Of a DNA stretch of 64,000 nt, positions 3,596-63,603 are shown in pieces. Made by a program: the position numbers and the translations under genes. The notes beneath the pieces are model-generated. The model saw only the letters and a program-made list of their open reading frames with translations, was not told the DNA's origin and made no database searches. Each line of letters opens with the position of its first letter. The stretch's first letter is position 1. Source of the stretch: Candidatus Woesearchaeota archaeon (GTDB lineage Archaea; Nanobdellota; Nanobdellia; Woesearchaeales; 21-14-0-10-32-9). Location: assembly GCA_046543095.1 (NCBI GenBank), contig JBKHAC010000002.1, positions 2,525 to 66,524 of the forward strand. Direction: 5' to 3'.

Positions 3596-3738
3596 GGTTT
3601 TGTCCAGAATAATACAAATAGGTGTACTGCGCAAACCAATCGAAACTGACTTGTATGTTGAACTGAGTCTATCAAATCCCTTGTTTAATTTGAGTACTTT
3701 GCTAGGCAGTATACAAAATATAGATTCTGGACAAGACC
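3596..3738 (+). repeat. Family-1 hairpin repeat (MITE-like), divergent copy
   Basis: Shares GTGTACTGCGCAAACC ... TTTGCTAGGCAGTATACAAAA with copies at 394, 21802, 31529 and 63459. Terminal arms GTCCAGAATA/TATTCTGGAC are complementary. Confidence 0.75.
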
Positions 3739-3900
3739 TTATTTTATTAATATTAGAGCCTGAGTAAGTCCTTACGCTTACCTGAGCAAGTTTTACTCTT
3801 ATAACCATAAACAAATATATTTAAGAATTTAAATTTAGTTAGGCACTCAGAATTTATTTATTGAACATTAATATGCACATATTAAAAACTAATGTGTTTA

Positions 3901-4044
3901 TTACAAATCGGGTTTAATACCTCGCTGCTTCGCAGTGACTTCAGACTCGATTTGTAATGACAGAAAATCCGCCAGCGAAAATTCGCGTAATACTTCGCAG
4001 CTCTGCTGCGCGAGATAGCGAATTTTAGGATTTTCGTTTTATTT
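3901..4044 (+). ncRNA. Family-2 structured repeat; candidate small structured RNA gene (3 copies, all on the + strand)
   Basis: Nested stems TTACAAATCGGGT/ACTCGATTTGTAA, CTGCttcGCAG, GAAAATTCGC...GCGAATTTTC and CGCAGCtctGCTGCG. Ends in a T-rich tract. Copy-to-copy differences are tolerated only as G-T(U) pairs on the + strand. Confidence 0.45.
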
Positions 4045-4522
4045 GATATTTCGCATAAGCTCTATGTTATTTTATTAAGGGGTTTATAATTAAGGGCATA
4101 TAATTTTTATTAGGGGATTTTATAGAATACTTTAGGTTTCTGATTAGTTTTTGATAGGCAAGTTTTGTTTGATTTATGTTTATCAAAGTTTGTGAGGCTT
4201 TTACTATATTGTTATACAACTAAATTTTAATTGTTAAATATAAATTAATTTAGCTTATTGACTTTTTTTGAGTTTTAACCACGACTAAAAAAATAGAAAC
4301 TTTTATAAAGAAAAAGGTCTGGAACATATTGTTGTTTTTTATTAGAGGGTGTATCGACTAATGCTCGAAAACGAAACATTTATATATTATAGGATTTAAA
4401 TATATGAAAAGGTATATTGAAATACAATAACTTACATTAGTTTTGTTTGTTGGTGCATTACAAAAATACCGACGACAAATATAAAAATAATAAAAAAATA
4501 AAATCAAAAACCACTACGCGAG

Positions 4523-6219: not shown

Positions 6220-6297
6220 AAACTTTTTTTCTTTTATTTTTTCTTTTATTTTTATCAATAAAGATTTTCTATAAGTATAAATGACTTAATTAGTTTA

Positions 6298-6396
6298 AAT
6301 TACGAGCGGAAGAATCCTCGCTTTTTAGCGTTAGCTAAAAAGTTAACTGAAGGTTAACCCTTTAGGGAGGGGAAGCGCCCTCTAACTTTTTCAATT
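6298..6396 (+). repeat. Family-3 hairpin-rich repeat (short form)
   Basis: GAGCGGAAGAATCCTCGC, TTTTTAGCgttaGCTAAAAA, GTTAACCgaagGTTAACC and AGGGagggGAAGCGCCCT stems. Longer copies at 39181 and 42906. Confidence 0.8.
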
Positions 6397-6722
6397 TAAA
6401 TTTATAATAAAATAATAAATCACACTATTAAACTAAACATGAATTAAGATAATAACTTAATTTATCTATATTATTTCTTAATGCTTTCAATTAATCAACT
6501 AATACTTTAAAATAACGACTTTTTCAAATTAAACACACCTTGAAAAAATTCAATAAAAACTAATGCACATATAAAAAATTTTAAAATAACAAATGCAATC
6601 AAATTTAAACATACTAAAAAAGTTCAGAAAAAGCATTAATTTAATTAATCTAATTTTGAATCTGAAATTAAACATCTCCAACAAAGGTTTATAATTTGAA
6701 ATATAAGATAAAAAAAACTAAT

Positions 6723-7718: not shown

Positions 7719-7894
7719 TTAACAACCCACCTCTAAATATTTTTGGTCACTATTTATTTATAAATATGTCGATTTTTTCAACTTTATTTTCATTTTTTTT
7801 TCAAACTATTTAAACTATTTATTAAATTATTTTTACTTTCATGATTTATTTTCTGAATTTTATTTATTTCTTTGAATTGTTTATGTTATATGAA

Positions 7895-8028
7895 GTATAT
7901 TCGCAGTAGCGCTTTATATGACGCATAAAGATTAAAAAACTATTTGAAAATTATTTGAAATTTACTTTTAAAGCTCGAAAATTTATAATTCTCACATGTA
8001 ATTAAACTTGTTTGATTTTTCTCGTTTA
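7895..8028. repeat. Family-7 element ending in the palindrome AATTAAACTTGTTTGATT plus a T-run, located 3' of the gene at 8037
   Basis: Shares TATATTCGC(A/G)GTAGCGCTTTATATG ... CTATTTGAAAAT ... AATCAAACTTGTTTGATTTTTCTCGTTTA with 62052, 41393 and 53234. Confidence 0.7.
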
Positions 8029-9849: not shown

Positions 9850-10440
9850 ATGTTCAAACAAAAAAAAGCAGTTATGGGCGTAGGAATGCTACTAATATTT
9901 GTAGCGAGTATAGTCTCAGCAGCAATAGCTGCAGCACTACTTATAACATCAACAAATTTACTACAAGATAGAGCAGCTAAAGTACAACAAGACGCAACAG
10001 AAGGACTTATTAGTGGACTTGATGTAGTTTCAATATATGCAACAGGAAATATGACAACAGAGATAATATACGAATTTGAATTCATCACAAGGCTTAGAGC
10101 AGGATCAAGACCTGCACAACTAGACTCCTTAGGCCTTACATTTATACAAGGTGAAAACACAGCAACAGGATACATGAACACATCACTTATAGGCGATAAC
10201 TGCACATTTGAAAATCTTCAAGCTGAAACAGAATTTTGCGTGAATAAAATATTCGGCGATGAAAACACAGTACTTGAAAGTGGCGATATGGCAATTATAA
10301 AATACAAATTATCCAACGAATCCGCACTACCAACAGACACTCCCTTCGATATAATATTCCAACTTAGAGTCGGCTCACCTTTAATTATGGCCTTGCAAAC
10401 GCCTGATATGGTACTTAGCAGTAAGATAAGACTTAGATAA
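9850..10440 (+). CDS. flaB: Archaellin (FlaB-family) with a class III signal peptide
   Basis: N-terminus KKAVMG/VGMLLIFVASIVSAAIAAALLI followed by the archaellin-type conserved block LQDRAAKVQQDATEGLISGLDVVSIYATG. Confidence 0.75.
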   Translation: MFKQKKAVMGVGMLLIFVASIVSAAIAAALLITSTNLLQDRAAKVQQDATEGLISGLDVVSIYATGNMTTEIIYEFEFITRLRAGSRPAQLDSLGLTFIQGENTATGYMNTSLIGDNCTFENLQAETEFCVNKIFGDENTVLESGDMAIIKYKLSNESALPTDTPFDIIFQLRVGSPLIMALQTPDMVLSSKIRLR

Positions 10441-12891: not shown

Positions 12892-14568
12892 CTACCAAAT
12901 CGTACTCATATCAGGAAGAACCATATCAACAACAGAAGGAATAGTCCAATAAAGCAAAGCAATAATCCAAATCATAATAATTAAATTAATGATGGATGAA
13001 TAATTAGACCCACCATCAATAATCTTCAAAATCCACGAAGACGTAAAAGCATGAATTATAAGCATAACCATAATAAGAACAAGAGCCACACCAAAATTAA
13101 TCTCCTGATTCATAGGCATAATAGTCTGCGCAAAATCAACAGTCATCTCATCATCAATATTCGTCGTAGAAAAAAGCTGAGACATCTTCTCAGAAATCCT
13201 AAACGTAATAAAAATAGTTAAAGACACACCAATAGTAATACCATAAAAAACACCAGTGAGACCCTGCGCGAGCTGAGCCCTAAGCTTCCTTAAAGAAAGC
13301 AAATGCTGAACATTATTACTAACAATCTCACCAATCTTTTCAGCATTACCACCAAGATAAATAGACTCAGAGAAAATCTTACTAAAATTATTAACCAAGT
13401 TACTACCAGAATCAACCGCGTAATGATACCAAGACTTAAACTTATCAGTACCAAGCCTCAAACGCCTATAAAGATTAACACTCATATCATTAATAACACC
13501 AAAATCATGCATCTGAGTAGATTTTAAAGACGAAATAACGCCCCCATTACGAACCTCAATAGCAGACCCCAAAATCCTCGCATAAACAGGAAACTGAACA
13601 TCACGCTTACGCACAATCTCTTCCTCACGAACAGCAAGAAACCCAGGATATAAAAGCGGAAGCGAACCTAAAGCCATAACAGTAATAAACGATAAAGAAG
13701 TCAAAAATAATAAACCAACAAAAAAAACACCACTAATAATCACAGCAAATTTAAACGCCTGCTCAATTTTTAACTGACCTAAACTTTTATGCGCCAAATC
13801 ATGAAAAATTTGATCACGAGGAATAAAACCTTTCACTGCAAAAATAATCACAACATCCATAACAACTAAACCAACCAAAGCATAAATGAGCAAAACATTA
13901 ACAGGCAAAGCAATTAACAAAGGCGCAAGCAAAATAGTACTCACAAGAAACGCAAAAGAAACCGAGAGCGCCATAAACAATTCTTGAATCATCTTAATAA
14001 TCTCAAGAGATTTTTTATATTCAACAGAATAATCATCAAGCACAGCACCCTGCTCATCATACAAAAAAGTATCAAGCTCCTCACCAAAATCCATGACAAC
14101 AGCGAACCTATCAAGAAAATCACCAAGAATACGAGAAGGAGTCCTCGAACCCATCAAACGACAAGAATTAACAAAACCCATATTCCAATCTTTAGACAAA
14201 TAAATAACCTTCTCAAACGTCTTACTAATCTCACCAAAAACCTTTTTCTCAGCAATCTTCTTAAATAACGCATGACGAGAAATCTTCATAGTCGCAATAG
14301 TACCTGCATAAGTAATAAAAAAATGCAAATTCTCATTAATATTTTGTTTAACAGCAGAATACTTAATTAAAGGATAACCTATAAGTCCACCCATAGTTAA
14401 TAAAATTAAAAAAATACTAAACACAAAACCAACAGGAACAATAAAAGGAATAATTAAAGAAATTAAAACAACACTACTCAAAATAGGCAAAACTAACTTC
14501 AACAAATAATCATTCAAATTCGAATAACCCACAAGTAAAATTACTTTATCAATTTTTTTAGTATTCAT
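12892..14568 (-). CDS. flaJ: Archaellum assembly membrane protein FlaJ (TadC/GspF-like)
   Basis: Polytopic membrane protein of 558 aa immediately downstream of flaI. Typical FlaJ N-terminal TM pair and cytoplasmic domains. Confidence 0.8.
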   Translation of the reverse strand: MNTKKIDKVILLVGYSNLNDYLLKLVLPILSSVVLISLIIPFIVPVGFVFSIFLILLTMGGLIGYPLIKYSAVKQNINENLHFFITYAGTIATMKISRHALFKKIAEKKVFGEISKTFEKVIYLSKDWNMGFVNSCRLMGSRTPSRILGDFLDRFAVVMDFGEELDTFLYDEQGAVLDDYSVEYKKSLEIIKMIQELFMALSVSFAFLVSTILLAPLLIALPVNVLLIYALVGLVVMDVVIIFAVKGFIPRDQIFHDLAHKSLGQLKIEQAFKFAVIISGVFFVGLLFLTSLSFITVMALGSLPLLYPGFLAVREEEIVRKRDVQFPVYARILGSAIEVRNGGVISSLKSTQMHDFGVINDMSVNLYRRLRLGTDKFKSWYHYAVDSGSNLVNNFSKIFSESIYLGGNAEKIGEIVSNNVQHLLSLRKLRAQLAQGLTGVFYGITIGVSLTIFITFRISEKMSQLFSTTNIDDEMTVDFAQTIMPMNQEINFGVALVLIMVMLIIHAFTSSWILKIIDGGSNYSSIINLIIMIWIIALLYWTIPSVVDMVLPDMSTIW

Positions 14569-14608
14569 AAAAAACCTAACTCTCTAATTTAAAAAACCCA
14601 CCTAAAAT

Positions 14609-16255
14609 TTATAATTTAAACGGCAATGTTGCCTCACCACCATGATAATAATTACGAAGAATAGACCAAACATCATAATAATTAAAAATCTTCTCCTCAA
14701 CCATACGCTTTAAAATCTTAGTACGCTTATCCAATTCAGCATAAATCTCACGAGGATCTTTAAGCCCAAGAGTCTTCGCAATTTTCTGCTCAAGAATATA
14801 ACTATTAAAAAGACCCCTAAAAATTAATTTATCATTAACACTATTCCACGTAAAAACCTCACGCGTAATAACTTTATTTGCAGGAGCATAATAACGCTCA
14901 AGCTCACTTAAAGATAAAACACGACGAACAAATTTATTACCACGATAAACAGCTTGCTGAATCAAACACAAATTCAAGTTATCAATAAAAGCAATAGGAA
15001 CATTAATAGGATCACCCGTCAAACGCTGAATCATAGTATTAACATCACCAGCGTGAAAAGTAGATATAACAGGATGCCCAGTCTGCATCGCCTGAAACGC
15101 AATAGCACCCTCCTCACCACGAATCTCACCCACAATAATATAATTAGGACGACTACGAAGAGCAGCAATAAGCAAATCCAAATAACCAACATCAGACTCC
15201 TTACCAGCCTCACGAGTAACCAAATGCTGCCAAATATCATGAGGCATAGTAACCTCGGGAGTATTCTCAACAGTAAACACCTTCGCAGTAGGCTTAATAA
15301 AAGCAGCACACGCATTAAGCGTAGTCGTTTTACCAGACGCAGTTTCTCCACAAACAAACAAATTCATACCATTTTCAAGCGAGAGCCAAATGTACGCTGC
15401 AAGATCAGCACTAAGAGTATTCCAATTAATAATCTGAGTAATAGAGACAGGAACATCAGAAAACTTACGAATAGTAAAACTAGAACCCTCAAGACTAATC
15501 TCACGACCAAAAATAAAATTCGCACGAGAACCATCAGGCATAATCGCATCAACAACAGGATGACGATCACTAGTTGGACGCTCAACACGCTCAGTAGTAT
15601 CAATAACATACTTATCAAGCTCCTTATCTGACTTAAACTCAATAGTTGTATAAATCATACCAAACACTTTATGAATAGACGTTACAACACCAACACCAGT
15701 ACAATGAATATCCTCCAAATTAGGATCACGCAAAAGAGGCTCAAGCTTACCATAACCAACACGATTCCTAACCAAGAAATATTTAATTTTCTCATATTGC
15801 AAAGACGTAAGCCTAGTTTTAGATGAAATACTAAACAAACCCTTACTCGAACTAGCACCACCAGACTCAGAAACTTCAACAACGTCATCAAGAAGCTTCA
15901 ACAAAACAGGACCAATTTCAGTAACTTTATCAGGCACAGGCTCTTTATACGCAATATCAATTAAACGCTCAACACACTCATCATAAAGCTTCTGCTCATC
16001 ATCAGTTAAAAACGGCTCAATTACGGTATAAATGGTGTCTTCAGCCGGCTTCTTTCTCAAATGAATAAAAATAGGATCACCAACAGGATAAATAAGATTA
16101 GGAAAATCCATCTTACCCATATCACGAGTAAGCGCAGGCACAAAAGTAGGCATATCCTCTTTAGAAAAACCCTCAACATACAACCTAAGATGCTCAAACT
16201 TCTTTTTAGCCTCTTCAAAATCCTTAGTAATTTCAACTTCCTTTTTCATTTTCAA
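14609..16255 (-). CDS. flaI: Archaellum ATPase FlaI (type II/IV secretion ATPase family)
   Basis: Walker A VCGETASGKTTTLNA, Walker B/Asp box and His box. 548 aa. Confidence 0.9.
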   Translation of the reverse strand: MKMKKEVEITKDFEEAKKKFEHLRLYVEGFSKEDMPTFVPALTRDMGKMDFPNLIYPVGDPIFIHLRKKPAEDTIYTVIEPFLTDDEQKLYDECVERLIDIAYKEPVPDKVTEIGPVLLKLLDDVVEVSESGGASSSKGLFSISSKTRLTSLQYEKIKYFLVRNRVGYGKLEPLLRDPNLEDIHCTGVGVVTSIHKVFGMIYTTIEFKSDKELDKYVIDTTERVERPTSDRHPVVDAIMPDGSRANFIFGREISLEGSSFTIRKFSDVPVSITQIINWNTLSADLAAYIWLSLENGMNLFVCGETASGKTTTLNACAAFIKPTAKVFTVENTPEVTMPHDIWQHLVTREAGKESDVGYLDLLIAALRSRPNYIIVGEIRGEEGAIAFQAMQTGHPVISTFHAGDVNTMIQRLTGDPINVPIAFIDNLNLCLIQQAVYRGNKFVRRVLSLSELERYYAPANKVITREVFTWNSVNDKLIFRGLFNSYILEQKIAKTLGLKDPREIYAELDKRTKILKRMVEEKIFNYYDVWSILRNYYHGGEATLPFKL

Positions 16256-16944
16256 CCAGATAAATCCACAACAATACCAATACCCGCGCGAACCTTAAAC
16301 GGCAACTCACGCTCAACATCATTAATCGCACCAAGAAACCGCTTCACCTGCAAAATATTCAAAATATTACCATACTGCTCACGCTCAAACATAACAAGAT
16401 GAACCTCAACAGTATTTTGCAAATATTTCAAAATCTCTCTATTAATAATTTCAGGCTCTACACAAAAAATAACAGTCTTACCCGAACTTGTAAGCTTTTT
16501 AAAAGCACTAATGAACTCAAAAGTCTCACTTAAATTAGACTCATTTTTCAAAACAAAATCATTAAGCGCATCAATAACAATAACCTCAGATTCCAATAAT
16601 TTTTTAGATAAAAAAATCTTCTTAATCATATCAGGCTCAAAATTAACACGACCAAGCAAAGGAAAAGTCGTAATAAATTTTAACTGACCTGCAAGAAACT
16701 CTTTACGAATATCATACTTTAAAGAATCCATTTGAGAGAGAAAACTTTGAACAGAGAGCTCAGAGCTAACATAAGAAATACTAACATTATTTTTAATCGC
16801 GCCATAAACAAAACGCTGAGCCAAAATAGACTTACCAAGACCAGCCGGACCCTCAATTAAAACAAGACTATTCTTAGGAATGCCCCCGCCAAGTTTTAAA
16901 TGAAGCTCATCACCCTCAAGCTCAATACTATAAATTTTATCCAA
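16252..16944 (-). CDS. flaH: Archaellum protein FlaH (RecA/KaiC-like ATPase)
   Basis: Walker A EGPAGLGKSILAQRF. 230 aa. 4-nt overlap with the flaI start. Confidence 0.8.
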   Translation of the reverse strand: MDKIYSIELEGDELHLKLGGGIPKNSLVLIEGPAGLGKSILAQRFVYGAIKNNVSISYVSSELSVQSFLSQMDSLKYDIRKEFLAGQLKFITTFPLLGRVNFEPDMIKKIFLSKKLLESEVIVIDALNDFVLKNESNLSETFEFISAFKKLTSSGKTVIFCVEPEIINREILKYLQNTVEVHLVMFEREQYGNILNILQVKRFLGAINDVERELPFKVRAGIGIVVDLSG

Positions 16945-17852: not shown

Positions 17853-18437
17853 ATGAAAAATTATAATAAAAAAGCAGAAGTAGCTATGGGCACGCTAATC
17901 ATATTTATCGCAATGATACTGATTGCAGCAGTCGCAGCAGCTGTTTTAATTTCATCAATAGGAAGTATTCAATCTAAAGCACTAGAGACTGGGTCTGCAA
18001 CAAGACAAGAAATAGGAACAAATGTAAATGTGGTCGAAATATACGGACCGAAAGATACAAATGAATCAACAATAACAAACATAAGCATGGTTGTACGCCT
18101 CGCAGCAGGATCAGACCCAATTAGACTTAGTGATTTACTTCTAACTATTGGCGCTGAGAATTTCACAAACGAATTCACATATAATTCAACAGACCATAAT
18201 AAAGGAGGAACTGCTGGCGCATCATTTAACGTATCATACCTTCTTGAAGGAAATAACAACCAACCTGATTATCTAGTTAAAGGAGACGTTGCAAGATTCG
18301 ATTTAGAACTTGAATATGCAGTAGGAGAAGATGCGAGTTTAAGATTTACACTTATACCAAAAATAGGAACTCCCGCAATAGTGTTTGCAACAACACCTAA
18401 TGCAATAGCAAATTCAAGAGAAACTATTTTCCCATAA
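17853..18437 (+). CDS. flaB: Archaellin (FlaB-family), tandem copy 1
   Basis: KKAEVAMG/TLIIFIAMILIAAVAAAVLISS class III signal/archaellin N-terminus. Divergent from flaGHIJ. Confidence 0.85.
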   Translation: MKNYNKKAEVAMGTLIIFIAMILIAAVAAAVLISSIGSIQSKALETGSATRQEIGTNVNVVEIYGPKDTNESTITNISMVVRLAAGSDPIRLSDLLLTIGAENFTNEFTYNSTDHNKGGTAGASFNVSYLLEGNNNQPDYLVKGDVARFDLELEYAVGEDASLRFTLIPKIGTPAIVFATTPNAIANSRETIFP

Positions 18438-18653: not shown

Positions 18654-19226
18654 ATGAGAAAAAATAATAAAAAAGGAGAAGTTGCTATGGGCACATTAAT
18701 TATATTCATAGCAATGATACTGATTGCAGCAGTCGCAGCAGCAGTTTTAATATCTTCCATAGGAAGTATTCAATCTAAAGCACTAGAGACTGGGTCTGCA
18801 ACAAGACAAGAAATAGGAACAAACATCAACACAGTAGAAATCTACGGATTTAAAGATGGTGATGATGCTACAATGACTAACTTTAGCATGGTTACAAGAC
18901 TTGCAGCAGGATCAGACCCTGTAAGACTTGGAGATTTATTATTAACAGTTGGAACAGAATCATTTACTGATGAGTATACATACAACTCAACAAATTTGAG
19001 TGCGGGCACCACATTTAATGCATCTTACTTGCTTAAAGGTGCAAACAATCAAAATGGTTATATAGTTAAAGGTGACGTTGTGAGACTTGATTTTATTTTA
19101 AGTGATACAATCGGCGAAGATGCAACAATGAGATTTACAATGATTCCAAAAATTGGAACTCCAGCAGTTGTATTTGCATCAACACCAACAACTATTGCGA
19201 ACTCTAGAGAAACAGTTTTCCCATAA
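18654..19226 (+). CDS. flaB: Archaellin (FlaB-family), tandem copy 2
   Basis: Same N-terminus as 17853. About 110 nt of 5' coding sequence is nearly identical between the two copies. Confidence 0.85.
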   Translation: MRKNNKKGEVAMGTLIIFIAMILIAAVAAAVLISSIGSIQSKALETGSATRQEIGTNINTVEIYGFKDGDDATMTNFSMVTRLAAGSDPVRLGDLLLTVGTESFTDEYTYNSTNLSAGTTFNASYLLKGANNQNGYIVKGDVVRLDFILSDTIGEDATMRFTMIPKIGTPAVVFASTPTTIANSRETVFP

Positions 19227-20568: not shown

Positions 20569-20717
20569 TATTAAATATTTACATTAATAACAATAAAAAT
20601 CAATTTGTCCCAAATAATACAAAAAAATATACGCCGCGCAAAACTACGCAAATCAAATGAAATTCAATGACAGTAATCTAATAAAAATAATTCAATAAAA
20701 ATAATTTGATAAACAGA

Positions 20718-20880
20718 CCTCATAGAAATCCTTTTCGAACCAATAAAATCTTAATGATGCCTCGCTTCGTTTTCATGTTATTTAGATATTTGAATCGAGT
20801 CTCACATACAACGGATGTTTGATCTAGAACTTAAGCAAGATAGCATTATTATTAAAATTTTAATAGAATTTCTATGAGGC
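20718..20880 (+). repeat. Family-4 ~165-bp TIR element
   Basis: Termini CCTCATAGAAATCC ... GAATTTCTATGAGG. Copies at 29905 (-), 37908 and 48043. Confidence 0.8.
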
Positions 20881-20927
20881 TAATAAAAAGTACGTGCATA
20901 GCGCAACGAGCATCTCTTCTTTAGATG

Positions 20928-21801: not shown

Positions 21802-21946
21802 GACTTTGTCCCGAATAGTTGTTTTTTGTATACTGCCGAGCAAACCACTCAAAATAAACATTGATTTTTATAGACTCGAATTTAAACCCTAGTGAACATT
21901 GTTCGGTTTGCGCAGTATACAATTCATTGTTATTCGGGACAAAGCC
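21802..21946 (-). repeat. Family-1 hairpin repeat, inverted orientation
   Basis: Reverse complement aligns to the 31529 copy. Stem GTCCCGAATA/TATTCGGGAC carries compensatory changes. Confidence 0.85.
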
Positions 21947-23652: not shown

Positions 23653-23768
23653 GGTGGACAGCTTTCCGGATCTCCCGCCCTTGAAGGCAGTACGCACCGG
23701 AACGTGCATGTGCTTGACTTCCGTGTTCGAAATGAGAACGGGTATATCCACACGGCTTTGACCGTCCA
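23653..23768 (-). rRNA. rrf: 5S ribosomal RNA
   Basis: Reverse complement reads GGACGGTCAAAGCC...CCGTTCTCATTTCGAACACGGAAGTCAAGC...GTACTGCCTTCAAGGGCGGGAGA...GCTGTCCACC. Helix I termini pair. Matches the universal 5S loop C and helix IV/V consensus. GC-rich island in an AT-rich context. Confidence 0.85.
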
Positions 23769-23982
23769 ATACATAGGAATGCACATCCCTTTATAAAGCT
23801 TTTTCTTAAAAATAATTATCTTCAATAATGAAAATAAATTATTTTTCAGGATTTTTAAAAATTATGAAATAAATGTCTTAAATGTCTTGTTCATAATACT
23901 GCAAATATTCCACATAATTATTATCTCATCATGAACTAAAAAAATAAAAGATTTTTAAAGAAAAGACAAGTAATAAAATAAA

Positions 23983-29840: not shown

Positions 29841-29904
29841 AAAACATCATTCTTTATTTTTTTAATTCATTTTTTATTAAATCAACAAAAAACGCTAATT
29901 CTTA

Positions 29905-30068
29905 GGCCTTATAGGAATCCTATTAAAATTTTAATAATGATGCTATCTTGCCTAAGTCATAGATCAAACATCTGTGGTGTGTGAGACTCGGTTCAAATGT
30001 CTAAATAATATGGAAACGGAGCATAGCATCATTAAGATTTTATTGGTTCGAAAAGGATTTCTATGGCG
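29905..30068 (-). repeat. Family-4 TIR element (inverted copy)
   Basis: Reverse complement matches 37908..38086. Confidence 0.8.
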
Positions 30069-30115
30069 CCAATTCTTAGAAAAGTATAAAAAGAGAACTT
30101 GTTTAAATAAAACTT

Positions 30116-31528: not shown

Positions 31529-31673
31529 GGCTCTGTCCCAAATAACAATGAAGTGTATACTGCGCAAACCGAACAATGTTCACTAGATTTTAAATCCGAG
31601 TCCATAAAAACCAATGTTTATTTTGAGTGGTTTGCTCGGCAGTATACAAAAAACAACTATTTGGGACAAAGCC
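31529..31673 (+). repeat. Family-1 hairpin repeat (reference copy)
   Basis: 145 bp with imperfect long inverted arms and an internal palindrome GAACAATGTTC. Confidence 0.85.
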
Positions 31674-37878: not shown

Positions 37879-37907
37879 AATAAGCCAAAAATAATATTAT
37901 CAAAAAG

Positions 37908-38086
37908 GTCTCATAGAAATAAGGCCTCATAGAAATCCTTCTCGAACCAATAAAATCTTAATGATGCTATGCTCCGTTTCCATATTATTTAGACATTTGA
38001 ACCGAGCCCTACACACCACAGATGTTTGATCTGAGACTTAGGCAAGATAGCATCATTATTAAAATTTTAATAGGATTTCTATAAGA
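37908..38086 (+). repeat. Family-4 TIR element, with a duplicated left terminus
   Basis: GGTCTCATAGAAATAAGGCCTCATAGAAATCC ... GGATTTCTATAAG. Confidence 0.8.
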
Positions 38087-38132
38087 TCATCAAAAACCAA
38101 AATTTAAATACTAAAAAAACTTTTTAAAAAAA

Positions 38133-39034: not shown

Positions 39035-39180
39035 AAAATATTAAAAATTTTATGAAACTAAAACATATTTAAATTAACACAAAATAGCGCACCTCACAAA
39101 ACAAGATACTTCAAAAATACATTGAGCACTGAGACTAATGGCTCTAAAGTTCAAAGGAACAAATATATTTGTATAACTTA

Positions 39181-39370
39181 AATTACGAGCGGAAGAAATC
39201 CTCAATTTTTTTGCGCGGGGCAAAAAAATGTTACCTTTAGGCTTCAGATTTTTTCTCTCTCTAATTTGCCAAAGTTAAAGCGGAAGAAATCCTTGATTTT
39301 TAGCGTTAGCTAAAAAGTTAACCGAAGGTTAACCCTTTAGGGCGGGGAAGTGCCCTCCAACTTTTTCAAT
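39181..39370 (+). repeat. Family-3 repeat, long form (duplicated head module plus a TTTTTTTGCgcgggGCAAAAAAA hairpin)
   Basis: Aligns with 42906..43097 and with 6298..6396 over its 3' 100 nt. Confidence 0.8.
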
Positions 39371-39488
39371 TAAGCAGTATTAATTTTACACAGCACTAAA
39401 ATATTATAACACAAATTAAAAAAAATTTTATTTCTAGAGCCTCTAATATTAGCAAAATATAAATATGCGGCCATCTTCCTAAACAATT

Positions 39489-41371: not shown

Positions 41372-41392
41372 CTATTTTTTAGGTTATATAAA

Positions 41393-41480
41393 GTATATTC
41401 ACGGTAACGCGTTCATATAATACAGAAAAATCAAACTACTATTTGAAAATTTAATCAAACTTGTTTGATTTCTCTGGTTA
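41393..41480 (+). repeat. Family-7 element with the AATCAAACTTGTTTGATT palindrome, 3' of the gene ending at 41371
   Basis: GTATATTCACGGTAACGCGTTCATATAA...CTATTTGAAAATTTAATCAAACTTGTTTGATTTCTCTGG. Confidence 0.7.
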
Positions 41481-42228: not shown

Positions 42229-42462
42229 GTGGTTTATTTGCCTTACAAAAAGGTTTCGAGTTTGCCTGAGCAAGTAAAAGATAATTTGCCCAAACACGCG
42301 ATGAAGATTTACAAAGAGGCTTACAATAATGCATTCGAACAATATAAAGATCCATCAAAAAGGAAAGGCGACGCATCTAGAGAAGAAGCGGCGCACAAAG
42401 TTGCTTGGGCTGCTGTTAAGCAGAAATATGAAAAAGAAGGTGATAGATGGGTAGAGAAATAA
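42229..42462 (+). CDS. ChaB-family protein
   Basis: LP..VKDNLPKHAMKIYKEAYNNA...EEAAHKVAWAAVKQKYEKEGDRW matches the ChaB consensus. SD TTAGGAGGTGG. Confidence 0.6.
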   Translation: MVYLPYKKVSSLPEQVKDNLPKHAMKIYKEAYNNAFEQYKDPSKRKGDASREEAAHKVAWAAVKQKYEKEGDRWVEK

Positions 42463-42488
42463 TTTTTTTAATTTTTTTATTGGTTTTA

Positions 42489-42632
42489 TTACAAATTGAG
42501 TTTAATACCTCGCTGCTTCGCAGTGACTTCAGACTCGATTTGTAATGACAGAAAATCCGCCAGCTAAAATTCGCGTCAGTACTACGCAGCTCTGCTGCGC
42601 GAGATAGCGAATTTTAGGATTTTCGTTTTATT
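42489..42632 (+). ncRNA. Family-2 structured element, copy B, ending directly at the SD of the gene at 42642
   Basis: Same stems as 3901..4044. Outer stem TTACAAATTGAGT/ACTCGATTTGTAA has a T-G wobble. Confidence 0.45.
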
Positions 42633-42641
42633 GGAGGTGAT

Positions 42642-42887
42642 ATGATGGAACCATATACAAATATACAACATGTCGTTCCCGCAGATGGTAAGTGGGGCGT
42701 TAGGGCTGAGAATAGTGAGCAACCATCTAAACTATTTGATTTGAAGATGAGTGCGATATCTCATGCGTTTGATATTACAAAAAAGCATGAGGGGGGACGA
42801 GTGGTTGTTCATCGCGAGGATGGCTCTTTTGAAAATGTTAATATAACTGAAGATACATCCAAGTTAATGACTATTTTGAGGTCTTAA
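42642..42887 (+). CDS. DUF2188-like small protein
   Basis: VVPADGKWGVRAENSEQPSKLFDLKMSAISHAFDITKK...VVVHREDGSF pattern. SD GGAGGTGA. Confidence 0.5.
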   Translation: MMEPYTNIQHVVPADGKWGVRAENSEQPSKLFDLKMSAISHAFDITKKHEGGRVVVHREDGSFENVNITEDTSKLMTILRS

Positions 42888-42905
42888 TTTTTTCTTTTTT
42901 TCTTT

Positions 42906-43097
42906 AAATTACGAGCGGAAGAAATCCTCAATTTTTTTGCGTCAAGGAAAAAAATGTTGCCTTTAGGCTTCAGATGTTTTCCCTCACTAATTTGCTAAAG
43001 TTAGAGCGGAAGAATCCTCGCTTTTTAGCGTTAGCTAAAAAGTTAACCGAAGGTTAACCCTTTAGGGGGGGGAAGTGCCCTCTAACTCTTTCAATTT
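42906..43097 (+). repeat. Family-3 repeat, long form; a partial extra copy at 43141..43215
   Basis: Aligns to 39181..39370. Confidence 0.8.
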
Positions 43098-47950: not shown

Positions 47951-48042
47951 TCTCTAAAGCCTCCTTATATGCGCATACGCACACAAATTATTTATCCAAC
48001 TTTATTTATAACCTCTCGACTTTAAAAATATTTCTTTTAATC

Positions 48043-48208
48043 GGACTCATAGAAATCCTTTTCGAACCAATAAAATCTTAATGATGCTATGCTCCGTTTC
48101 CATATTATTTAGACATTTGAACCGAGCCCTACACACCACAGATGTTTGATATATGACTTAGGCAAGATAGCATCATTATTAAAATTTCAATAGAATTTCT
48201 ATAAGGCC
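48043..48208 (+). repeat. Family-4 TIR element
   Basis: GGACTCATAGAAATCC ... GAATTTCTATAAGGCC. Confidence 0.8.
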
Positions 48209-48303
48209 ATTTAATTAGCTGCAGGCAAAAATCTTGCAGGACGCAACAATCATAACTCGCAATTTAATAATATTTAAATAAACAGGGTCCAACCCCAATA
48301 ATA

Positions 48304-50194: not shown

Positions 50195-50320
50195 AAATAT
50201 GTATGCTGCACAAATTAATAAAGCCAGAATTGTTTATTAAAACGAGGTTATTGAAACCAATATTTGAGTTCAGTGGTTTGCCAAACAGTATACAAAATAC
50301 AGACATTCTAAATAAGCACA
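50195..50320 (+). repeat. Degenerate family-1 repeat copy in the leader region upstream of rpl1
   Basis: GAAACCAATATTTGAGTTCAGTGGTTTGCCAAACAGTATACAAAATACAGAC aligns to AAACCAATGTTTATTTTGAGTGGTTTGCTCGGCAGTATACAAAAAACAAC. Confidence 0.55.
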
Positions 50321-53191: not shown

Positions 53192-53273
53192 CTTTATTTT
53201 TTATTTTTAATAAATTTTTTAACTTCTATTATTAATCAAACTTGTTTGATTTTCTTGAAAATAAAAAAAAATA

Positions 53274-54140: not shown

Positions 54141-54167
54141 TTAAATAATTTATTAAAATAAAGTTGT

Positions 54168-54294
54168 GGACAAAATTTTTTGGTAATACCACGAACTTCG
54201 AGCATTATTTGGTTCGTGGTGCCGAGTCTATTTAATTCGTGTTTAAATCCATATTGCTCGTTTAGGTATTACCAACTTTTTATATCCTTTACTA
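54168..54294 (+). repeat. Family-5 TIR element
   Basis: GGTAATACCACGAACTTCGAG ... CTCGTTTAGGTATTACC. Copies at 55265, 57523 (head) and 58228 (tail). Confidence 0.75.
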
Positions 54295-54504
54295 ATAACG
54301 TGAAAATACCAAAAATCACTTTTGCGTAACAAAACCCAAGAAGAACTAACGCAAATTTCTACAATCTTATTTTTCTCGTGAAGTACCAATTAAAATCATA
54401 ATCGCCACTGACACAGTAAAGCAAAAAACCCAAGTTATAATAAAAACTCAAAGTATAAATAAAACAACAAATTACCTAAAAAAATAATAAGGAGGATGAT
54501 ACAA

Positions 54505-54969
54505 ATGTTAAAGGAAGGAGATATCGCACCAAGTTTTTCACTCAAAGACCAAAACGGAAAAGTACATACACTAAAAGATTACACAGGACAAAAAATAGTA
54601 CTATATTTTTATCCAAAAGATAACACACCAGGATGCACAAAAGAAGCATGCGCATTTCGCGATATATACGAAGAATACAAAAAAAATAATATACTTGTTC
54701 TAGGCATTAGCAAAGACACAGAAAAAAGCCACAAAAATTTTGCTGAAAAACACAATTTACCATTTAATTTACTTATAGACGAAAACCGAGACATACTAGA
54801 AAAATACGGTGCGTGGACAAAAAAAAGTCTATATGGTAAAATGTTCATGGGGATACAAAGAATAACCTATGTTATAGATGAGAAAGGCCACATACTCAAA
54901 GTATACCCAAAAGTAAAACCTGAAGATCACGCAAAACAAATACTTAAAGACATAGGAATAAATACATAA
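54505..54969 (+). CDS. bcp: Peroxiredoxin Bcp/PrxQ
   Basis: YFYPKDNTPGCTKEACAFRD peroxidatic Cys motif. SD AGGAGG 9 nt upstream of the ATG at 54505 (the track starts at 54496). Confidence 0.85.
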   Translation: MLKEGDIAPSFSLKDQNGKVHTLKDYTGQKIVLYFYPKDNTPGCTKEACAFRDIYEEYKKNNILVLGISKDTEKSHKNFAEKHNLPFNLLIDENRDILEKYGAWTKKSLYGKMFMGIQRITYVIDEKGHILKVYPKVKPEDHAKQILKDIGINT

Positions 54970-55036
54970 AACTACAAGGATAAAAAAACAATTTTTCTAA
55001 CAATACCTGCATAGCGTAGACGAGCAAAGAGTTTTA

Positions 55037-55180
55037 TTACAAATTGGGTTTAATACCCCGCTGCTTCGCAGTGACTTCAGACTCGATTTGTAATGACAGA
55101 AAATCCGCCAGCGAAAATTCGCGTCAGTACTCCGCAGCTCTGCTGCGCGAGATAGCGAATTTTAGGATTTTCGTTTTATT
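55037..55180 (+). ncRNA. Family-2 structured element, copy C
   Basis: Outer stem TTACAAATTGGGT/ACTCGATTTGTAA (two G-T wobbles). Inner stems conserved. Confidence 0.45.
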
Positions 55181-55195
55181 TCGTTTTTAAAACCG

Positions 55196-55264: not shown

Positions 55265-55395
55265 TGGACAAAAGTTTTTGATAATGCCACGAGCTTCGCA
55301 TATTATTTAGTATATGGCACCGAGTCTATCGAATTCGTATTTGAATTCGTATTGCTCTTTTAGGCATTACCAACTTTTTATGTCCTCAACTATTT
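55265..55395 (+). repeat. Family-5 TIR element (intact reference copy)
   Basis: GACAAAAGTTTTTGATAATGCCACGAGCTTCGC ... GTATTGCTCTTTTAGGCATTACCAACTTTTTATGTCCTCAACTA. Confidence 0.75.
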
Positions 55396-55451
55396 AGGGG
55401 CAAAACTTAAATAATACTTAGAGATTATATTGAATAAATAAGGTGATACAA

Positions 55452-57470: not shown

Positions 57471-57522
57471 AAACCTAAGAATAAACAGCTTAAAATATAA
57501 ATTTTTTCATAAATTAGTCACA

Positions 57523-57640
57523 GACAAAAGTTTTTGATAATGCCACGAGCTTCGCATATTGGTTGGTTTGTGGCGCCGAGCATGTTGAATTCGTGTTTAA
57601 ATTTGTATTGCCCGCCAGAGGCTCTCTTAATTTTAAAAAC
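57523..57640 (+). repeat. Family-5 element head, interrupted at 57612..57622
   Basis: Matches 55265..55375, then diverges at CCGCCAGAGGC. Confidence 0.7.
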
Positions 57641-57667
57641 AATGATGCTTTTCAAACAAAGAATTAT

Positions 57668-57997
57668 TCACATTCGAAAACCAAACTTCTTTAAGTCTTC
57701 TTTTAATTTGTCAATTACATGTTGTTGATTATTTTTTTTGCTTAATGCCACGAACTTTATTATCAAGTTTTTTAATTCTTCTTTTGTAATTATGTGTTTC
57801 TTTGAGTCTTGCACTATAAAGTAAAATCTAAACGATTTTAATCTTTCTTCCCTTATAACAATGTTCGTGATTAAAGTCACAAAATCCCCATCAGCTGGAC
57901 TTGTTAATGCTAATTCGTTTACTAATATTTTAGCTTCTGTTTTAGAAGAATGTTTTTTTAATTCTTTAATAAATTGTTTTGAGAATTCAACTACCAT
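57668..57997 (-). CDS. RelE/ParE-superfamily toxin
   Basis: FSKQFIKELKK...KILVNELALTSP...FRFYFIVQD pattern typical of RelE/ParE. Overlaps the upstream antitoxin ORF by 7 nt. Confidence 0.55.
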   Translation of the reverse strand: MVVEFSKQFIKELKKHSSKTEAKILVNELALTSPADGDFVTLITNIVIREERLKSFRFYFIVQDSKKHIITKEELKNLIIKFVALSKKNNQQHVIDKLKEDLKKFGFRM

Positions 57998-58227: not shown

Positions 58228-58273
58228 TCTAGTCTCCGCCAGAGGCATTACTAATTTTTTATGTCCTCAACTA
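58228..58273 (+). repeat. Family-5 element tail (resumes after CCGCCAGAGGC at 58236..58246)
   Basis: CCGCCAGAGGCATTACTAATTTTTTATGTCCTCAACTA matches the 3' end of 55265..55395. Confidence 0.7.
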
Positions 58274-62021: not shown

Positions 62022-62051
62022 AAAACCAGTTCTTTTTTATGTCATATAAAT

Positions 62052-62139
62052 TATATTCGCGTTAGCGCTTTATATGCCACACAAAAATCAAACAACTATT
62101 TAAAAAATTTAATCAAACTTATTTGATTTTTCTCGTTTA
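62052..62139 (+). repeat. Family-7 element with the AATCAAACTTATTTGATT palindrome, between the ferredoxin and the U32 gene
   Basis: TATATTCGCGTTAGCGCTTTATATGCCACACAAAA ... AATCAAACTTATTTGATTTTTCTCGTTTA. Confidence 0.7.
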
Positions 62140-63458: not shown

Positions 63459-63603
63459 TGCTCCGCCCCAAATAACAATGAAGTGTATACTGCGCAAACC
63501 GAACAATGTTCACTAGATTTTAAATCCGAGTCCATAAAAACCAATGTTTATTTTGAGTGATTTGCTCGGCAGTATACAAAAAACAACTATTTGGGACAAA
63601 ACC
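63459..63603 (+). repeat. Family-1 hairpin repeat
   Basis: Near-identical to 31529..31673 (a few substitutions). Confidence 0.85.

Follow-up and report, generated by a model that had tools for sequence, protein, structure and literature searches.

The Family-2 repeat of this Woesearchaeota genome is probably a gene-less, non-autonomous mobile DNA insertion element that consists of two long hairpins and inserts in one orientation at the T-rich motif GTTTTATT, leaving this motif on both sides (rough probability 0.7). Three copies are present in the window, that is, in the whole 64-kb (64,000-nt) stretch of DNA that was analyzed. All three are encoded on the + strand, and their cores of 133-134 nt are 95.5-97% identical to one another (Table 1). 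These are the three same-strand repeats reported in a preliminary description of this DNA. The GC content given there was about 50%; the measured value is 41-44%, compared to about 31% for the window. The element is short (~142 nt), multi-copy and always intergenic, and seven columns inside it are variable across the three copies. No fourth or partial copy was found in the window using either blastn with a word size of 7 or a covariance model built from the three copies. The ORFs inside the element differ from copy to copy and are disrupted by a 1-nt indel, leaving it with no coding capacity and ruling out a small protein gene. A template/variable repeat pair of a diversity-generating retroelement is also ruled out, as all copies are intergenic and the changes among them are not adenine-specific.

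Each copy has TTTTCGTTTTATT at its 3' end, in agreement with the common end described previously. The repeat unit is also bounded on its left side by an 8-mer that was overlooked in that description, such that it is flanked by a direct repeat. GTTTTATT stands at both ends of copies B and C; in copy A it is found at the right end, and the left end carries GTTTATT instead. All three copies are oriented like their downstream gene. Copy B had been described as abutting the SD of the DUF2188 gene, and it does lie directly next to the GGAGGTGATATG of this gene, with 9 nt between the end of the copy and the ATG. The short-read Logan contigs of sample SRR11308339 contain the same genes as the window and break inside the element: L001 ends at ~55088 and L106 starts at ~4015, each ending ~31 nt beyond the last copy-specific base within the element. 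Such breaks are the expected signature of a multi-copy repeat.

Table 1. Features of the 64-kb window (positions are those of the window).
Feature	Position	Strand	Remarks
Family-2 copies, approximate extents	~3899-4046; ~42487-42634; ~55035-55182	+	copies A, B and C
Copy A, left flanking direct repeat	3896..3902	+	GTTTATT; one T short of the repeat of the other copies
Copy A, core	3903..4035	+	133 nt
Copy A, HP1 stem	3899-3959	+	begins within the left repeat; followed by linker ACA
Copy A, HP2	3963-4035	+	follows the linker
Copy A, right flanking direct repeat	4036..4043	+	GTTTTATT
Copy B, left direct repeat	42483..42490	+	GTTTTATT; same as the single copy at the L083 empty site
Copy B, core	42491..42624	+	134 nt; between the ChaB gene (42229-42462) and the DUF2188 gene (42642-42887)
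Copy B, HP1 stem	42487-42547	+	
Copy B, HP2	42551-42624	+	
Copy B, right direct repeat	42625..42632	+	GTTTTATT; GGAGGTGATATG of the DUF2188 gene directly 3'
Copy C, left direct repeat	55031..55038	+	GTTTTATT
Copy C, core	55039..55172	+	134 nt; 62 nt past the stop codon of the Bcp peroxiredoxin gene (54496-54969)
Copy C, HP1 stem	55035-55095	+	
Copy C, HP2	55099-55172	+	
Copy C, right direct repeat	55173..55180	+	GTTTTATT
D1 repeat family	394-538; 31529-31673; 63459-63603; 21802-21946 (inverted)		~145 nt
D1, diverged copies	near 3596-3718 and 50234-50301		
D2 repeat family	20696-20887; 37903-38094; 48023-48214; 29894-30093 (inverted)		~170-200 nt
D6 repeat family	54167-54321; 55265-55419; 57521-57675; 58243-58273		~155 nt
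D8/D12 repeat family	6296-6397; 39178-39372; 42904-43097		100-190 nt
AT-rich blocks	7877-7950; 41375-41448; 62033-62106		~75 nt; ...TATATTCGCRGTARCGC...; TAATCAAACTTGTTTGATTT
AT-rich blocks, further coordinates	7978-8019; 41431-41472; 53212-53253; 62089-62130		
5S rRNA gene	23653-23769	-	stand-alone; no linked 16S or 23S in the window
Tandem archaellin genes	17853-18437 and 18654-19226; also 9850-10440		81% identical over a 300-nt repeat
Archaellum operon, further coordinates	12892-16944		comprises the tandem archaellin genes beside FlaI-like/FlaJ-like secretion ATPase and membrane genes and a KaiC-like ATPase gene

Empty sites in related genomes

The insertion can be recognized by comparison with a related Woesearchaeote (contig L083, Logan SRR21542053), whose DUF2188 protein is 84% identical to that of the window. 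In L083, the ChaB gene is followed by the DUF2188 gene, and the two are separated by a 45-nt spacer without the Family-2 element. L083 reads ...GGTTTTATTGGAGGTGATATG here (further extents: ...TAATGGTTTTATTGGAGGTGATATGATGGAACC and ...TTTTTTTAATGGTTTTATTGGAGGTGATATGATGGAACC). At copy B, the window reads ...ATTGGTTTTATT(ACAAAT...GGATTTTCGTTTTATT)GGAGGTGATATGATGGAACC or, with a longer left extent, ...TTTTTTTATTGGTTTTATT(ACAAATTGAG...GGATTTTCGTTTTATT)GGAGGTGATATGATGGAACC. The window thus differs from L083 by a clean 142-nt insertion consisting of the 134-nt core and a second GTTTTATT, while L083 keeps one GTTTTATT. Because this empty site is exact and retains a single GTTTTATT, the Family-2 unit is a DNA insertion. 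The earlier view that the copies represent a structured transcript and not a repeat at the level of DNA is not supported. The DUF2188 protein beside copy B is 100% identical to a protein of a Candidatus Woesearchaeota MAG (GCA_964462285.1).

A second relative, L093, encodes a Bcp protein that is 86% identical to that of the window. The gap between the Bcp gene and the orthologous lipoprotein gene is ~86 nt in L093 and 473 nt in the window. The covariance model has no Family-2 match at this Bcp-lipoprotein site or in any of the relatives' contigs. The gene downstream of copy A has a nearest homologue with 60% identity, which is too distant for an empty-site comparison at the nucleotide level, and contigs L088 and L104 are not syntenic with the window. 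In principle, the L083 empty site could have arisen by precise deletion between the 8-nt repeats, but insertion is far more likely than three parallel deletion histories.

The coding sequences flanking copy B are 76% (ChaB) and 83% (DUF2188) identical between the window and L083. As the Family-2 copies are far more alike than these genes are to their orthologues, the copies spread after the split from the L083 lineage. Judged from these identities, the spread of Family-2 is recent and the copies are much younger than the split. The comparison also bears on the proposal that copy B could be a cis-regulatory leader. The DUF2188 gene of L083 has an identical GGAGGTGATATG start and ribosome-binding region without the element, which indicates that the element is not a required leader of this gene.

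Target motif and orientation

The GTTTTATT motif is matched 36 times when both strands of the window are counted, or ~3e-4 per position. Because the motif is this infrequent, its presence at every boundary is not due to chance, and Family-2 either targets GTTTTATT or carries it. Of 17 intergenic GTTTTATT sites, six lie on the + strand and 11 on the - strand; three of the six and none of the 11 are occupied (p ~0.03), although with three known copies the orientation and target statistics are thin. GC skew, a possible guide to replication direction for an element of a type predicted to insert on the lagging-strand template, is uniformly negative on the + strand of the window and is inseparable from coding-strand composition in this archaeon. 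Sequences like GTTTTATT are characteristic of the terminators and intergenic regions of this AT-rich archaeon, and one is found after the 5S rRNA gene, where it follows a T7 terminator. An element with such a target motif would land in safe intergenic positions.

The 8-nt direct repeat has the same sequence at every Family-2 site, unlike the site-variable duplications of the D1 repeat family described below. The arrangement of GTTT(T)ATT on the left, GTTTTATT on the right and a single motif at the empty site fits identical adjacent and encoded motifs, and it fits an 8-bp duplication at a specific target equally well. No terminal inverted repeats were found by direct reading of the left end (ACAAATTGAGTTT...) against the reverse complement of the right end (GAAAATCCTAAAA...). 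When ACAAATTGAG... is compared to the reverse complement of the right end, GAAAATCCTA..., only ~4 of the first 6 positions match. As its termini are not inverted repeats of each other, Family-2 is not a classical MITE.

Predicted fold and strand polarity

The RNA fold predicted for the + strand has a free energy of -53.8 kcal/mol (z = -5.2), and none of 200 shuffled sequences is equally stable. The preliminary description proposed four nested helices. The predicted fold instead consists of two separate hairpins: HP1 (columns 1-61, with two helices) and HP2 (columns 65-138, with three helices), separated by ACA. The outer-helix variants quoted previously are present at column 11 (C/T/T opposite G) and column 13 (G/A/G opposite T). 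Both are one-sided changes in which pairing is kept via G.U. The earlier term 'G-U tolerant covariation' goes beyond what the copies show: among the three copies, 3 of the 50 pairs have one-sided changes that keep the pair and none has changed on both sides, in a test that has almost no power on three near-identical sequences. On the + strand, pairing is lost in two variants, as C.A at 24-40 in copy C and as A.G at 98-115 in copy B. The column 98 pair is U.G, C-G or a broken A.G, depending on the copy.

The strand polarity described previously is borne out by pair counts and folding energies. On the + strand, the 50 pairs comprise 44-45 Watson-Crick pairs, 4-5 G.U pairs and 0-1 broken pairs; read on the - strand, 5 of the same pairs are broken. 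The RNA fold of the + strand is 9-12 kcal/mol better than that of the - strand. This polarity rests on ~5-6 positions that are read from a structure predicted on the + strand. When folded as single-stranded DNA, the + strand (-31.6 kcal/mol, z = -6.1) is again more stable than the - strand (-27.1 kcal/mol, z = -4.1). The D2 repeat family has a strand asymmetry of the same size, which tracks its own orientation even though D2 is present in both orientations. The polarity of Family-2 fits single-stranded DNA hairpins with G.T pairs equally well as RNA. Because the single-stranded DNA folds and D2 show equal asymmetry, polarity is no proof that RNA is the functional form.

The two apical hairpins of copy A and their 5' flanks are alike (TAATACCTCGCTGCT and TAATACTTCGCAGCT), with matches at 13 of 15 positions, a value reached by 10 of 1000 shuffles. 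This likeness is weaker in copies B and C. In copy A, AATAC is found on the 5' side of both apical hairpins. The distance from the left boundary to the foot of the left apical hairpin is 19-20 nt, and the right-end spacing is ~25-30 nt.

Evaluation of Family-2 as a small-RNA gene

It is quite improbable that the Family-2 copies are small genes for structured RNAs, each transcribed on its own into an RNA of ~140 nt with two hairpins that ends at an oligo-T. Several properties are those expected of such genes: the + strand is the better-folding strand, the non-Watson-Crick positions common to all copies are G.U on the + strand and mismatches on the - strand, GC content is raised relative to the window, HP2 is followed by two T4 runs, and all copies are co-directional with the downstream gene. 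The wobble asymmetry is limited to the few positions noted above, and the pairs show no compensatory change and two breaks. Half of the oligo-T terminator claimed for TTTTCGTTTTATT is GTTTTATT, a pre-existing target sequence that is present at the empty site and to the left of the copies. The 5S rRNA terminator of the same genome is a T7 run, which is stronger than T4CGT4.

Sequence searches also argue against this interpretation. A search of the whole window against Rfam at gathering thresholds gives the 5S rRNA as the only model that passes, with no relevant family at Family-2, be it H/ACA, a ribozyme or HEARO. When copy A is searched at E-values up to 10, the best match is to an unrelated trypanosomatid snoRNA model (19 bits compared to a threshold of 40; E-value: 0.07). 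No tRNA or tmRNA genes were found in the window. The copies share no BRE/TATA promoter: conservation ends at the flanking 8-mer, and the flanks upstream of it are unrelated among the three copies. By comparison, the 5S rRNA gene has a clear TTTATAAA box ~24 nt upstream. The element is absent from the orthologous sites of two relatives (ChaB-DUF2188 in L083 and Bcp-lipoprotein in L093) and from every collection searched. Exact patterns for the HP1-HP2 junction, the HP1 tip, the HP2 tip and a transition-tolerant HP2 had no match in genome, metagenome or viral collections, and blastn of the element against phages and plasmids had no match. The small-RNA-gene reading, as stated in the preliminary description, is not supported.

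Family-2 has some resemblance to archaeal H/ACA-box guide RNAs, as HP1 has an internal loop and is directly followed by an ACA triplet. In contrast to these RNAs, the upper stem has no K-turn or K-loop, an internal loop of 6 and 4 nt is too small and a lower stem of 17 bp too long, no ANA box comes after the second hairpin, and the repeat is multi-copy and mobile with no Rfam match. An archaeal H/ACA guide RNA is ruled out based on the missing K-turn, the small pocket, the long lower stem and the box-less second hairpin.

Other repeats and genes in the window

D1 is a textbook MITE with 17-bp terminal inverted repeats (GGCTCTGTCCCAAATAA) and copies in both orientations. Its 8-bp target duplications vary by site (CTTTCTTC, TAAAATAT, GATAAATY and AAGAAARA). 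D2 is probably a second MITE family. Its copies are 79-94% identical and have inverted-repeat-like ends (CCTCATAGAAATCC ... GGATTTCTATRAGG), and it folds 8-10 kcal/mol better on one strand, following its own orientation. D6 is located just upstream of several genes, including both genes flanking copy C, and is absent from the orthologous Bcp-lipoprotein spacer of L093. It may be a mobile promoter-bearing element or another MITE. The copies of D8/D12 are 83-93% identical and contain several short GC-rich hairpins; one of them lies 270 nt downstream of copy B. The AT-rich blocks, with conserved ...TATATTCGCRGTARCGC... and TAATCAAACTTGTTTGATTT, recur in intergenic regions, where they may serve several genes as a common promoter or operator.

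Among the genes of the window are those for an archaeal Hef helicase-nuclease and for ribosomal proteins, along with an archaellum operon and a lone 5S rRNA gene. The Bcp/peroxiredoxin Q protein is most similar among species representatives to bacterial proteins (Melioribacter, Clostridia and others), with at most 61% identity. Relatives with 77-86% identity are found solely in unbinned metagenome contigs. This distribution suggests either that the gene came to this archaeal lineage by an old transfer from bacteria or that the lineage is poorly sampled.

Candidate transposition mechanisms

Transposons of the IS200/IS605 family use single-stranded circles for insertion, which takes place downstream of a short adjacent motif and leaves the target site unduplicated. 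They carry a similar encoded motif at the right end, depend on single-stranded DNA stem-loops at both ends, and have gene-less derivatives known as PATEs (PMC10055086). Family-2 shares a number of features with PATEs: it is small and non-coding, lacks terminal inverted repeats, has a hairpin at each end and is strand-specific in both orientation and folding. It also sits beside a short motif that is constant among the sites, and the copy of this motif at its right end may be the related motif that PATEs carry there. By analogy, it may be a PATE-like derivative that moves by an IS200/IS605-type peel-and-paste mechanism, an assignment that is tentative and at clearly less than even odds. In IS608, the spacing from the left boundary to the hairpin is 19-20 nt, as in Family-2.

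A number of features do not match this family. The Family-2 hairpins are 61 and 74 nt long, about three times the known end-hairpin length of about 20-25 nt. An identical sequence of 8 nt flanks both sides, compared to a typical adjacent motif of 4-5 nt. The right-end spacing of ~25-30 nt is longer than that of IS608 (~10 nt), and the right end has no features of an omega-RNA scaffold. Neither TnpA or TnpB nor a parent element was found in any collection searched or in ~87 kb of this genome, and the same ~87 kb (the window and ~22 kb beyond it, comprising 2.5 kb of L105 that precede the window and the locus L086 of 20 kb) contain no transposase, integrase or reverse transcriptase gene. Among the patterns used in the collection searches, the one spanning the HP1-HP2 junction is ill suited to finding a parent element.

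The proposed model for IS200/IS605-type movement of Family-2 is as follows. A Y1 transposase (TnpA) whose gene lies elsewhere would mobilize the element in trans. On the + ('top') strand, the two hairpin tips would serve this enzyme as binding hairpins, one for each end of the element. The left GTTTTATT would be the transposon-adjacent target motif and the right GTTTTATT the transposon-encoded cleavage motif, such that the insertion merely mimics a target-site duplication of GTTTTATT. If the guide sequences of the two ends are the same (AATAC in copy A), the cleavage motifs would also be the same, which would explain the apparent duplication. Excision would give the empty-site junction GGTTTTATTGGAGGTG and a circle junction in which GGATTTTCGTTTTATT is joined to ACAAATTG.

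Between genes, the element would probably be passively co-transcribed, and any effect at the RNA level, such as transcript stabilization or partial termination, would be secondary. Copy B is probably part of a ChaB-DUF2188 transcript, given the close spacing and common orientation of these two genes, and as a side effect of insertion its hairpins and T-runs could attenuate or stabilize this transcript. The bacterial ERIC, Correia/NEMIS, RUP and BOX repeats are structured intergenic repeats that are co-transcribed with neighbouring genes. Like Family-2, they are highly structured intergenic insertions of 100-150 nt, and they can join an mRNA between co-oriented genes as copy B would. They differ in having inverted-repeat ends or modular boxes and TA or other short duplications, in being bacterial and in sharing no sequence or Rfam similarity with Family-2.

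A further form of the IS200/IS605 reading, that Family-2 represents an undescribed, IS200/IS605-like non-autonomous transposon of DPANN archaea with long hairpins, identical 8-nt motifs and perhaps a functional top-strand RNA, is unlikely. For example, such an RNA might be an omega-RNA-like guide scaffold, or the element might be a mobile terminator or stabilizer module between genes.

Two other types of mobile element are lesser alternatives to an IS200/IS605-type mechanism. Family-2 resembles classical prokaryotic MITEs such as D1 in that it is ~140 nt, non-coding, intergenic, multi-copy and near-identical, is bounded by an 8-nt direct repeat and breaks short-read assemblies. It might therefore be a MITE of a DDE transposase with degenerate or very short terminal inverted repeats, for which GTTTTATT would be a true 8-bp duplication at a preferred target, and it might be mobilized by the same kind of enzyme as D1. 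An 8-nt direct repeat that surrounds each copy and is single at the empty site is consistent with this origin, as is the agreement of the 8-nt flanking identity with the length of the D1 target duplications; the D1 duplications also imply that an enzyme making 8-bp duplications has been active in this genome. A DDE-type origin is nevertheless improbable, as the Family-2 termini share no inverted repeat and are dissimilar to the inverted repeats of D1, the flanking 8-mer is constant while the D1 duplications (CTTTCTTC, TAAAATAT, GATAAATY) are not, and the copies are in one orientation.

Alternatively, Family-2 could be a cassette integrated by a tyrosine or serine recombinase, with GTTTTATT as the crossover core and the hairpins as folded sites, as in integron attC sites and Xer-dependent elements. 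The identical core around every copy, found once at the empty site, and the strand-asymmetric imperfect palindromes, similar to folded attC sites, would suit such a cassette. This origin is very improbable: there is no integrase gene or cassette array nearby, the copies are singly scattered over 51 kb and the element has no cargo gene. The core of integron sites is GTTRRRY, which GTTTTATT does not match. An integron attC site is ruled out by this misfit and by the lack of an integrase or cassette array.

Significance

Small structured mobile repeats are already known as a class. What is new is an element without inverted repeats, with two hairpins and a fixed 8-nt target, in Woesearchaeota/DPANN, where such elements are little described. 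An apparently convincing combination of structured RNA, G-U covariation and terminator is in this case an insertion, and the 'terminator' is partly its target site. Woesearchaeota are DPANN archaea with small, streamlined genomes, and this one contains several recently active gene-less mobile elements. Such elements bear on how streamlined genomes change and on why their assemblies fragment. Family-2 targets T-rich motifs that resemble terminators, and it can be located between genes that are co-transcribed. If single-strand transposition is the true mechanism, the range of PATE-type elements would include this lineage, with Family-2 as an unusual form that has long hairpins.
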